IMG/VR virus record: IMGVR_UViG_3300049460_000369
Direction: 5' to 3' (one strand)
DNA from: an uncultured virus (IMG/VR IMGVR_UViG_3300049460_000369)
Taxonomy: Duplodnaviria; Heunggongvirae; Uroviricota; Caudoviricetes
Length of the DNA: 64,000 nucleotides
Position numbers and translations under genes: made by a program. The notes under the pieces are model-generated. The model saw only the letters and a program-made list of their open reading frames with translations, was not told the origin of the DNA and did not search any database. Position 1 is the stretch's first letter. The number at the start of each line of letters is the position of its first letter. Positions 8,955-14,453 of this stretch are shown in pieces.

Positions 8955-9197
8955 ATGTTGAAATTATTAGAATGTACTGCTGCCCATCGTACTACCACCA
9001 TAACTCAATATGTTGAACTGGACGGTTTTTCATATTATGACGGGTTCGATCGTGCGGTTGTAAAATTGCAGAATGATGACAAATGGTGGATTATACCAAA
9101 TGATCCGTTTGACGATTACGATTGCGATGACGTCGGGCCGTATGATACCCCAGAAGATGCACTTATGATGCTTAAATTATCCTTTGAACGATCATGA
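8955..9197 (+). CDS. WWIIP-GPYD paralog family member 2
   Basis: KWWIIP...VGPYDTPEDALMMLKL. Confidence 0.75.
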   Translation: MLKLLECTAAHRTTTITQYVELDGFSYYDGFDRAVVKLQNDDKWWIIPNDPFDDYDCDDVGPYDTPEDALMMLKLSFERS

Positions 9198-9487
9198 CCT
9201 ATAATGTTTTCAATTGGGACTATCCTAACCTGTCGTATAGTGACATAGTTGGCCCCCATCGAGGCGTAACGTACTATAACCTGCTTATCGACAAACGTAC
9301 AGGCGAAACCGTTAAGGGTATAATTGATAACGATCGCTGGGTAGTTTGTCAACTATCTGGTGACGATAACTGGTGGATCGTACCGTTATATGAAGAAAGC
9401 GAAGCGTTGGTTGACGATATAGGACCATTTGACACAATGGAAGAAGCTTTGATCCATATGAAACTTTGCAGCACTAAAATAGAATGA
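9194..9487 (+). CDS. WWIIP-GPYD paralog family member 3
   Basis: NWWIVP...IGPFDTMEEALIHMKL. Confidence 0.75.
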   Translation: MTYNVFNWDYPNLSYSDIVGPHRGVTYYNLLIDKRTGETVKGIIDNDRWVVCQLSGDDNWWIVPLYEESEALVDDIGPFDTMEEALIHMKLCSTKIE

Positions 9488-9765
9488 CAATTAAAATTTC
9501 ACACAGCACCCGTGGCAAACACCGCGACACCCAATATACTGCCACGGCCAAAGTCTACCATAACGATACCCACTTCTACGACTTCTTCATGAACGACATC
9601 CCAGTGACGATTGCAGAGCTGGCAGACACACGGTGGTGGCTAATCCCAAGTTGGGATGACCATGAGAAAGATTTTGTTGATGTGGGGCCATTTGATACGG
9701 TGGATCAAGCTGCGGTTATGTTGCGTCTTCAGAGCACGGGTAGTGAATTGATCAAAGTGGTGTGA
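9484..9765 (+). CDS. WWIIP-GPYD paralog family member 4
   Basis: RWWLIP...VGPFDTVDQAAVMLRL. Confidence 0.75.
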   Translation: MTIKISHSTRGKHRDTQYTATAKVYHNDTHFYDFFMNDIPVTIAELADTRWWLIPSWDDHEKDFVDVGPFDTVDQAAVMLRLQSTGSELIKVV

Positions 9766-10615: not shown

Positions 10616-10619
10616 ATAT

Positions 10620-10670
10620 ACGAACCTGCAAGAAAGTGAAATATTTTTCAAAAAGTTCTTGCAGGTTCGT
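10620..10670. repeat. 15-bp perfect inverted repeat upstream of pth2
   Basis: ACGAACCTGCAAGAA (10620-10634) / TTCTTGCAGGTTCGT (10656-10670). Confidence 0.8.
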
Positions 10671-10730
10671 TTAAGATATGTAATCATGCAGTTGTGGTGA
10701 ATAAACGCCACATTCACTTAGGAGCACATC

Positions 10731-11162
10731 ATGTTGCCACATACGTAGATTTCTGAATTTGTTCTTCCAACCCCTTCCGAGGCAATTGCTGATCCGTACC
10801 GTTTGTACGCGATTATGCGTCAAGACCTCGACATGCCAGCGGGCAAACTGTCCTCGCAAACTGGCCATGCGTATGTAAACGCAATTCTTCAGAGCCTGAA
10901 GCTGCGTCCCGAAATCGTCACCGAATATCAGGGTGATGCTGACATCGGTACGAAATGCTGCTTGGCTGCAAAAAACGAAGCAAAAATTCTCGAAGCATAT
11001 GAACGTGCTCAGGAAGCTGGTATTCCTTGTTCACTCATTATCGACGAGCATCACATCCTTCCACCGCACTTCGACGGCAAACCGATCATCACTGGTCTGG
11101 GCATTGGCCCTGCACGACGTCACGAAGTACCGTTCCTCAAGAGGTTTTCCGTATGGAAATGA
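10731..11162 (+). CDS. pth2: peptidyl-tRNA hydrolase type 2 (Pth2 family) with in-frame amber codon at codon 6
   Basis: MRQDLDMPAGKLSSQTGHA...KCCL...GIGP motifs; TAGGAG RBS before ATG 10731; TAG at 10746-10748 in frame with the Pth2 domain. Confidence 0.8.
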
Positions 11163-11443
11163 AAACTTACTGGGAAGTGGCTACCCGTTACGATCGCACC
11201 GTGATGGATGACTGGCAAGCTCGTTCACATTTCCACACTATTGCCCATCGCCTGGGTATACGAGTGAAATGGATGTCAGCCCAATCAACTCCAACTCACT
11301 GGATTGGTTATACGGCCAACAACCCATCTCCAGGATATCCAATCGATCAACATTTTTGGAAGATCGAAGATGAAGATCAGGCTGCATTGTTTCACCTCAC
11401 TTGCGGAAGCAAGATCAGGAAAGTAGAGGTGAATGATGGCTGA
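11159..11443 (+). CDS. FKL-motif paralog family member
   Basis: C-terminal IEDEDQAALFHLTC. Confidence 0.7.
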   Translation: MKTYWEVATRYDRTVMDDWQARSHFHTIAHRLGIRVKWMSAQSTPTHWIGYTANNPSPGYPIDQHFWKIEDEDQAALFHLTCGSKIRKVEVNDG

Positions 11444-11699
11444 TTACTACTCAGCTTGGGAAGTAAGAACCCCTTACGCGGATGACGAAACATTCGCAAG
11501 TGCAAAACGCCGTGTTATGCAACACGCAGAAACTCTTGGGATTGACCTCAAGTGGCGCAAGAGTAAGGGACAGAAGGGATACAAACGTTATCACTTTTGG
11601 GAAATCAACACTGAAGCAGAAGCGGCACTCTTGGTGATCGCCTGCGGAGACAAAGTAAGCAATAAGACTTACGCGGAGAGAAAGGATGAATGCAGTTGA
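11433..11699 (+). CDS. FKL-motif paralog family member
   Basis: Similar to upstream gene (WEVxTxY...LGI..KW...HFWxI..E.EAALL). Confidence 0.7.
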   Translation: MMADYYSAWEVRTPYADDETFASAKRRVMQHAETLGIDLKWRKSKGQKGYKRYHFWEINTEAEAALLVIACGDKVSNKTYAERKDECS

Positions 11700-12536: not shown

Positions 12537-12818
12537 ATGAACGCAATCACTATCAACTTCACCACCCGTGCAACCTACCTGGAATTCAAGGCCGAATGGT
12601 CTGCCCAATACAAGGACACGGTCAACGCTATCCGTCAGGCGAAGCTGGACCTGAAGGAATGTCACCGTAAAAACCAGGACACGTATGCGACGCACAAAGC
12701 TCTGCGTGAGCTGCGTCAGGATATTGTGGATTTGGCTGCATTGAAAGCCGAAGCGAAGGTTGAAGCAAACCGTCAGTACCACGAGCAAAATACGGTTGAA
12801 GTAGCAGTCGCGGCTTAA
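12537..12818 (+). CDS. hypothetical helical protein
   Basis: AAGGAAG RBS before ATG 12537. Confidence 0.75.
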   Translation: MNAITINFTTRATYLEFKAEWSAQYKDTVNAIRQAKLDLKECHRKNQDTYATHKALRELRQDIVDLAALKAEAKVEANRQYHEQNTVEVAVAA

Positions 12819-13198
12819 CGTGATTGGCGGAGGTGCTTGATCATAGGCACCCCGCCATTTTCGTATATGTTCAATTCAGGTTCTGAGTACAGTCTCACGA
12901 AACCCATATGTCTCCAGAATGCCTCAGCATCTGGAGATTTTGCTCGTAAGTAGGCTCGTTTGATAAACTGTGGAAGTGAATTTTCCCATTCAGTATAGAG
13001 CTGGCGACCCCGACCACAGCGACGCTTTGACTCATCATAGATGATGAGGTTGGTGACGAGCGCGGTATCTGCCTCGGTAGTGCTCAGACTGGTGTTAAAC
13101 GTATAACCACATTCAGGAACTACAAATAGCATTGCGCTCTCCAAGTTTGGTTCATATGATAGCATATAAATTACACAAATGCAACTTGAAATCTTCAT
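12815..13198 (-). CDS. GNAT-family N-acetyltransferase
   Basis: Acetyl-CoA motif RRCGRGRQL and AEAFWRHMGF; start uncertain. Confidence 0.6.
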   Translation of the reverse strand: MKISSCICVIYMLSYEPNLESAMLFVVPECGYTFNTSLSTTEADTALVTNLIIYDESKRRCGRGRQLYTEWENSLPQFIKRAYLRAKSPDAEAFWRHMGFVRLYSEPELNIYENGGVPMIKHLRQSR

Positions 13199-14374: not shown

Positions 14375-14453
14375 GGGGATATAGCTCAATTGGTTAGAGC
14401 AGGGGGCACTCTAAACCCCAAGGTCTCCGGTTCGATTCCGGATATCCTCACCA
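14375..14453 (+). tRNA. tRNA with CUA (amber-suppressor) anticodon and atypical anticodon arm
   Basis: Acceptor GGGGATA/TATCCTC, D arm GCTC/GAGC, T arm TCCGG-TTCGATT-CCGGA, encoded ACCA; anticodon region GGGGG-CA-CT-CTA-AA-CCCC. Confidence 0.85.

Follow-up and report, generated by a model that had tools for sequence, protein, structure and literature searches.

The pth2 locus and its surroundings

The window, by which we mean the whole 64,000-nt stretch of uncultured caudoviral DNA analysed here (IMG/VR record IMGVR_UViG_3300049460_000369), carries a gene for peptidyl-tRNA hydrolase 2 (pth2) that opens with a Shine-Dalgarno (SD) sequence, an ATG, four further sense codons and an in-frame TAG (Table 1). 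Beyond this TAG the frame stays open until a TGA at 11160–11162, and the opening ATG and the Pth2 domain share one frame, no frameshift being needed to join them. The 3′ end of the gene overlaps the ATG (11156) of the next ORF. This succession of SD, minigene, in-frame TAG and Pth2 frame had been described in a first-pass annotation and is confirmed here to the base. The same annotation had doubted the annotated start, TTG 10803, which lies in the same frame 72 nt from ATG 10731; the doubt is upheld, as no SD was found for this codon and the closest purine-rich stretch (GAGG, 10779–10782) lies 20 nt upstream. The window also has an in-frame ATG at 10815; most relatives are devoid of such conceivable starts as these two. 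Ahead of the leader, an inverted repeat lies directly 3′ of the stop of the upstream gene and is separated from the pth2 SD by about 45 nt. It is a possible terminator or operator; a scan for promoters and terminators returned nothing over shuffle expectation.

Table 1. Sequence features in and around pth2 and the single tRNA gene of the window
Feature	Position	Strand	Remarks
18-nt inverted repeat (hairpin)	arms 10617–10634 / 10656–10673	+	94% complementary, 21-nt loop
Shine-Dalgarno AGGAG	10720–10724	+	6-nt spacer (10725–10730) to ATG 10731; T at 10719
Five opening sense codons, M L P H T (ATG TTG CCA CAT ACG)	10731–10745	+	
In-frame TAG	10746–10748	+	gate codon for the proposed suppressor reading
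N-terminal extension, 16 codons	10749–10796	+	from the stop to the Pth2 core
Pth2 core domain and stop codon	10797–11162	+	matches PF01981, PDB 2zv3 / 1q7s
tRNA, candidate amber suppressor	14375–14453	+	3.2 kb downstream of pth2; only tRNA in the window

Residues 17–127 of the frame after the stop match the Pfam family PTH2 (PF01981) with 62.5 bits against a cut-off of 23 (E 5.2e-17), over profile positions 1–105 of 115. Among solved Pth2 chains, 2zv3 is matched with an E value of 2.7e-11 (query 19–126, chain 3–104) and 1q7s with 8.8e-7. The archaeal and human chains align from post-stop residues 17–20, that is, from chain residue 3 onwards, and the homology to the solved structures covers the whole core, strand β1 included. 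The GK..Q..HA and D..H stretches, which we take to hold the catalytic residues, are conserved and align with those of the solved chains. Judged from these matches, the gene product is Pth2 and not a release factor.

The ORFs around pth2 are small and mostly without Pfam matches. Two groups of small tandem paralogous ORFs, neither with a Pfam match, flank the gene: one at 8955–9765, in which three members share a WW(I/L)IP...D(V/I)GP(Y/F)DT motif, and one at 11156–11699, in which two share an HFW.I...AAL motif. On the opposite strand, a 127-aa ORF (12815–13198) gives sub-threshold matches to GNAT acetyltransferases (E 0.002–0.003), too weak to rely on. It is perhaps of interest because N-acetyl-aminoacyl-tRNA is a substrate of Pth.

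An early in-frame stop recurs in homologous phage genes

The locus has no megablast match among isolate phages. By tblastn, its closest isolate relatives are Sinorhizobium phage Phosso (48%) and Agrobacterium phage Atu_ph07 (46%), both of which have a leader of the same build. In Phosso, an AGGAG is followed by ATG, two codons, TAG and then the Pth2 frame; in Atu_ph07, the ATG is followed by five codons, TGA and the Pth2 frame. The pth2 starts deposited for these two genomes (L001:1555 and L002:1546) correspond to the Met within the conserved DLxM motif, so that they remove strand β1 and leave about 160–230 nt upstream apparently non-coding.

We collected 107 loci from scans of viral and metagenome contigs and 4 from a genome scan. 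Classification covered 115 rows, made up of the window itself, 110 loci and 4 isolate phages of distant kinship; once 17 duplicate rows and 3 truncated at contig ends had been set aside, 95 non-redundant rows remained. We defined as type I those loci with an SD 4–10 nt before an ATG, 1–8 further codons and an in-frame stop, followed by the Pth2 frame. Comparison of the homologue 5′ ends revealed the conserved early stop that had been envisaged at first pass: it recurs in the 44 type I loci among the 95, as TAG in 40, TGA in 3 and TAA in 1. Their minigenes are 2–9 codons long, counting the ATG, and the presence of an SD at 4–10 nt in 44/44 of them is true by the classification rule. The TAA case (L037:1399–1407; AGGAG, ATG TTG TAA) would need an ochre suppressor. 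A further 20 of the 95 loci are of type II, in which Pth2 can be reached from the minigene only through a +1 shift. Ordinary starts account for 12 loci and 19 are unclear, 10 of the latter being type II on inspection, which brings this class to 30 in all.

The early stop or shift is confined to a clade with at least 35% identity to the window protein (lowest, L103, 35%). Ordinary starts are found in the distant phages XacN1, Xoo-sp13 and RaK2 (~28–31% identity) and in an Achromobacter bacterial chromosomal homologue, which begins with ATG; the phiM19 pth2 probably has one too. A quick tree unites the recoded forms in an ingroup with good support (SH-aLRT 96) and places the ordinary distant forms outside it.

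Both flanks of the stop are selected as coding sequence

Within an 8-member subclade, pN/pS is 0.15 over the six minigene codons and 0.22 over the first 31 codons after the stop (the pairs not being independent), and the TAG is invariant despite a synonymous divergence of 0.4–0.6 in the flanking codons. The minigene of L031 reads M Q P H T where that of the window reads M L P H T. Conservation and coding selection thus extend to both flanks of the in-frame stop, as in suppressor-tRNA-dependent recoding of phage genes. No in-frame ATG, GTG or TTG occurs between the stop and the DLxM Met in 24 of the 43 scored type I loci, so in these no canonical downstream start could supply the core β1 strand. 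Nor is the codon that follows the stop conserved as any start codon (ATT, GTT, GAA, CAA, GAC, AAC, ACT and others). By these comparative measures, both sides of the early stop are translated in one frame. Taken together, the start-free loci, the unconserved post-stop codon and the pN/pS values point to a single readthrough polypeptide and not to a leader peptide followed by reinitiation.

The latter alternative, in which the minigene would be a leader ORF of its own, serving to load or couple ribosomes, and Pth2 would start at TTG 10803, ATG 10815 or the non-canonical ATT 10749, is in our estimation improbable. It can call on the two in-frame start codons of the window, on an ATG or GTG immediately 3′ of the stop in five loci (L085, L088, L110, L006 and L007) and on the beginning of the Pfam domain near 10797. 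Against it stand, beside the loci without a canonical start ahead of the motif and the variable post-stop codon, the maintenance of frame while minigene length varies over 2–9 codons and the amino-acid-level selection on the minigene codons. Reinitiation would, moreover, leave the co-variation with tRNA anticodons described below unexplained.

Stop identity tracks the suppressor tRNA of the same phage

Among 18 genomes or contigs examined beyond the immediate flank of pth2, 14 contain a suppressor tRNA that matches the gate (TAG with CUA in 11, TGA with UCA in 3), and a tRNA(CUA) lies within the 1.5-kb upstream flank in 12 further distinct TAG loci. Both anticodon types were sought in 8 genomes: 7 have the matching type only and one, G003, has neither. 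These phages are rich in tRNA genes, with 31–67 tRNA matches. Atu_ph07, which has a TGA gate, has a tRNA(UCA), in agreement with the accessible text of its genome report, which gives one UCA (opal) suppressor among 33 tRNAs (PMC6102473). Phosso, with a TAG gate, has two tRNA(CUA), one of them about 4.4 kb upstream of pth2. In G001, a related complete phage genome with a TAG gate, a single tRNA(CUA) lies 3 kb downstream of pth2 and no UCA was found in the whole record. A pattern search followed by ARAGORN yielded CUA in G004, G006–G011, G013 and G015, and UCA in G002 and G005, both of which have TGA gates. Because these genomes share ancestry, the co-variation rests on few independent events; the TGA/UCA state arose perhaps only twice in the quick tree (once in Atu_ph07 and once in G002 and G005). 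The first-pass annotation had proposed that Pth2 is made only when the UAG is decoded, either through an active suppressor or under RF1 limitation. The comparison supports this requirement for decoding, and the co-variation of stop and anticodon strongly supports the suppressor branch.

The matching suppressor was not found in four cases. The complete genome G003 (543 kb, 66 tRNAs) has no canonical tRNA(CUA) by whole-genome ARAGORN and a relaxed stem-loop scan, and three contig fragments (34–54% completeness) gave no matching suppressor in a pattern search only. G003, the record of locus L008, carries two neighbouring pth2 copies on its minus strand (at ~352.5 kb and 353.77 kb), both with minigene and TAG. 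Its sole unusual tRNA (c96422–96505) combines an 8-nt loop (CGCUUAAC) with a long variable arm, and could be a UUA-type suppressor.

In L026 (1395–1980), the 3′ acceptor strand of the upstream tRNA(CUA) contains the AGGAG of the minigene, and pth2 is followed by another tRNA(CUA) as well as by an odd tRNA whose anticodon has four bases, ‘gcaa’; in L022 (1387–1477) the tRNA(CUA) ends 15 nt before the minigene ATG. In both, tRNA and pth2 are probably co-transcribed. Another tRNA-like gene, 88 nt long and with a 4-base anticodon ‘caca’ according to ARAGORN, occurs in G001 (215231–215318; L156:19231–19318). Similarity of the suppressors to other phage tRNAs gave no clear identity for the amino acid inserted at UAG.

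The tie between suppressor tRNAs and pth2 is not universal: XacN1 has CUA suppressors and a distant pth2 with an ordinary start. We had predicted an early TAG in this gene; the prediction failed, an SD and ATG in the ordinary arrangement being found instead.

A candidate amber suppressor in the window

The tRNA gene of the window folds as a cloverleaf (RF00005, 57.8 bits against a cut-off of 29) and is also found by ARAGORN. Its anticodon arm has a 4-bp G-C stem and an abnormal 9-nt loop (CACUCUAAA), which the two programs read differently. In the Infernal alignment, two extra bases follow position 32, on the 5′ side of the loop, which leaves U33-CUA-A37-A38; ARAGORN settles on the central triplet of the loop, UCU, and calls Arg(UCU). 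From general tRNA structure, the 3′ side of the anticodon loop should fix the position of the anticodon. Canonical type I suppressors have two bases between CUA and the stem, whereas the tRNAs of type II loci have one base there, so the window loop, with two bases after CUA, fits an in-frame (triplet) site. The suppressors of the four nearest large relatives, with CUA in G001 and G004 and UCA in G002 and G005, are found on the strand of pth2, 2.7–3.9 kb downstream of it; genes between pth2 and tRNA are common to these relatives and the window. In sequence, the window tRNA is unlike the suppressors of the relatives, and overall it is nearest to the tRNA-Lys(UUU) of G001. Its assignment is ambiguous; loop geometry and position nonetheless make it likely that it would serve as the amber suppressor (CUA) for the window pth2.

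Alternatively, a shortage of RF1 might let host near-cognate tRNAs read the UAG, in a feedback like that of prfB and with no dedicated tRNA; RF1 limitation was the second branch of the first-pass reading. We judge this to be of low probability. In its favour, the early in-frame stop lies in a translation-related gene, and TAA is nearly absent as a gate (1/44), as would befit a leaky or release-factor-specific stop; the early-TAG pth2 genes of G003 without a canonical CUA tRNA and the ambiguous tRNA of the window also speak for it. Yet the type of stop tracks the suppressor anticodon of the same genome, both in the 14 of 18 genomes or contigs and in the 12 loci with an adjacent tRNA, and Pth2 does not recognise stop codons, so that no feedback loop is obvious. 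Neither is a stimulatory RNA structure predicted at the window stop beyond what shuffles give (z −0.84). As stop identity follows the tRNA gene and not a release factor, and as the product is no release factor and the window has no shift site, the termination-sensing feedback proposed at first pass finds no support.

Sister loci with a +1 shift

Thirteen type II loci (L044, L047, L052, L053, L055, L058, L074, L090, L094–L096, L098 and L103) have a same-strand tRNA about 20–1050 nt upstream of pth2. In 13/13 of them, tRNA bases 34–37 complement the quadruplet at the shift point; in the cross-class control, in which tRNAs were set against minigenes of a different class, 3 of 122 pairings match. 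The pairs, written as quadruplet/anticodon, are UAGC/GCUA in 5 loci, CAUU with AAUG or GAUG in 4, UAAC/AUUA in 2, and CACC/GGUG and UUGC/GCAA in one each. These upstream tRNAs are candidates for natural quadruplet-decoding tRNAs. Engineered tRNAs that decode UAGN quadruplets are reported (PMC4764823); the pairing of a UAGC site with a G-CUA loop is common to both systems, with the difference that the type II pairs would be natural. The likeness does not apply to the window, which needs triplet reading.

A conserved motif (ACGG, 3–6 nt, GACCGCAC) follows the type II quadruplet at a fixed spacing of 7–8 nt, as seen in the anchored print only. Its codon phase differs between loci (e.g., L044, L074 and L095) and it is followed by a hairpin of variable sequence; it may be a frameshift stimulator. 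Type II would represent the same gate logic as type I with another key. More generally, we lean slightly towards the view that jumbo phages carry a family of natural lock-and-key pairs of tRNA and mRNA, in which only a dedicated and often adjacent phage tRNA would unlock the translation of Pth2, either as a suppressor (amber, opal or ochre) or as a four-base reader (of UAGC, UAAC, CAUU, CACC or UUGC) that shifts the frame by +1 with the help of the downstream element. If true, this would amount to programmed natural quadruplet decoding and would provide a physiological target for jumbo-phage suppressor tRNAs. Homologous loci also turned up in bacterial assemblies (L279–L281): a Psychromonas contig has a UAAC-type locus with an adjacent tRNA, a 1.6-Mb Pararhizobium contig has a UAGC-type leader, and the third is the Achromobacter homologue with its ordinary start.

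Genome-wide reassignment, chance and error

Phage CUA tRNAs and reassignment of TAG are known in other phage groups, as stated in the accessible part of a preprint (bioRxiv 10.1101/2021.08.26.457843), and pth2 could be one of many genes affected by a genome-wide, code-15-like sense reading of TAG. We hold this to be very improbable. The window has no other convincing early-stop frame. Three TAG-bridged frames on its + strand look like shadows of genes on the − strand, and of the 131 ORFs on that + strand with a length of 80 aa or more, 11 end in TAG. Of the 19 early-stop hits in G001, none but pth2 convinces, and three long TAG-bridged frames in G001 and G003 have no Pfam match. A crude screen for internal sites as other readthrough targets gave only candidates resembling shadow frames. 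For Atu_ph07, TGA is the stop of 267 genes in the accessible text of the genome report (PMC6102473), which likewise argues against reassignment.

The crAss-like, Lak and other code 15 or code 4 phages resemble the present case in that a phage tRNA(CUA) or tRNA(UCA) decodes in-frame stops under a standard host code. Recoding of that type, proposed there as a means of expression timing, involves many, mostly late genes with many recoded stops, whereas here it would concern one gene with one stop in its first 10 codons, TAG and TGA being otherwise ordinary stops in the pth2 phages.

In the window, 3 of the 184 frames of at least 100 codons are preceded by an SD and an ATG minigene (up to 10 codons) abutting a stop. 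The other two cases are weak, and pth2 is the sole one on the + strand and the sole one with an AGGAG at good spacing. The same anatomy occurs in 19 of the 1275 frames of at least 90 codons in G001. Chance is excluded as the source of the early-stop anatomy of pth2. That the gene is a pseudogene or its TAG an assembly error, the usual interpretation of a stop so early in a gene (codon 6), is a notion of negligible probability that is refuted by the conservation of the anatomy, which is repeated in 44 loci with the remainder of the gene intact and conserved. The TAG is present in assembled contigs identical to the window (possibly its source run; contigs, not raw reads) and is kept in a ~93% identical assembled contig from another study, in which both minigene changes (TTG to CTG and CAT to CAC) are synonymous (2/2).

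Discussion

As far as sequence comparison can tell, the anatomy of the pth2 leader is conserved, minigene and Pth2 are translated in one frame, and stop and suppressor co-vary. The mechanism that we propose, and consider likely as a whole, is that the window pth2 would be translated from ATG 10731 and would yield full-length Pth2 only via decoding of its UAG by a phage-encoded amber suppressor tRNA. In this jumbo-phage-like contig, ribosomes would thus start at the first ATG and arrive at a UAG at codon 6. Where the suppressor decoded it as an amino acid, full-length Pth2 would follow; where the release factor won, only a pentapeptide would be made. Pth2 synthesis would consequently be gated by, and probably scaled to, the mature charged recoding tRNA, the likely key in the window being the tRNA downstream of pth2. 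The position of the stop within the first 10 codons would imply that little is lost with a failed attempt, namely a tiny peptide. Minigene studies report poor release-factor activity on peptidyl-tRNAs that are very short, so that an early stop may favour the tRNA in its competition with release factors. The gate may in this way couple the dose or timing of Pth2 to recoding-tRNA activity. Since recoding tRNAs may themselves raise the load of dropped-off peptidyl-tRNA, Pth2 would be a plausible target for such control.

Several known systems share parts of this design. The gene prfB, which encodes RF2, is autoregulated at an early in-frame UGA, recognised by RF2 itself, through +1 slippage at CUU-U, aided by an SD-like stimulator. 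Like pth2, it has an early in-frame stop in a translation-factor gene and needs failed termination to give the full product. Unlike it, the window pth2 requires no frameshift, Pth2 is not a reader of stops, and the gate tracks a tRNA gene. The bar minigenes of phage lambda stand alone, have 2–3 codons, sequester tRNA in Pth-deficient cells and are toxic on expression when Pth is limiting. Very short ORFs of this sort cause peptidyl-tRNA drop-off, a link raised at first pass that is hypothetical for the pth2 leader. They have in common with the pth2 leader the succession of SD, very short ORF and stop and a functional tie to peptidyl-tRNA hydrolase. By contrast, the short ORF of the window runs on into Pth2 without a change of frame, and purifying selection acts on its codons; as they are selected and continue into a protein, it is not a stand-alone minigene of the bar type. 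Readthrough in the Q-beta A1 protein and in retroviral gag-pol relies on host near-cognate tRNAs and on a stop at the end of a complete protein, which thereby gains a C-terminal extension. There too a stop read as sense gives a longer protein, but in pth2 the stop comes right at the beginning of the gene and implies a dedicated suppressor encoded by the virus.

The tRNA-gated start of pth2 is conserved and apparently undescribed. Among open-access papers and bioRxiv preprints, we found none that links phage suppressor tRNAs to pth2 or describes the early stop. Jumbo phages have been reported to carry suppressor tRNAs for which no target is known. In the accessible part of the XacN1 paper, no target was found for its suppressor tRNAs (PMC5852040), and in that of the AP-J-162 paper a ‘tRNA-Pyl(CUA)’ and peptidyl-tRNA hydrolases are given separately (PMC11242549).

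The proposed gate would give jumbo-phage suppressor tRNAs a specific and conserved target, namely the phage's own peptidyl-tRNA hydrolase, and would functionally link recoding tRNAs to the recycling of peptidyl-tRNA. It would correct the annotated pth2 starts of the deposited Phosso and Atu_ph07 genomes, and these phages, Phosso with its Sinorhizobium host and Atu_ph07, would offer a culturable model in which tRNA-gated translation can be followed at a single gene. Provided that the sister loci hold, they would add natural pairs of quadruplet-decoding tRNAs and sites to those that have so far been evolved in the laboratory for synthetic biology.
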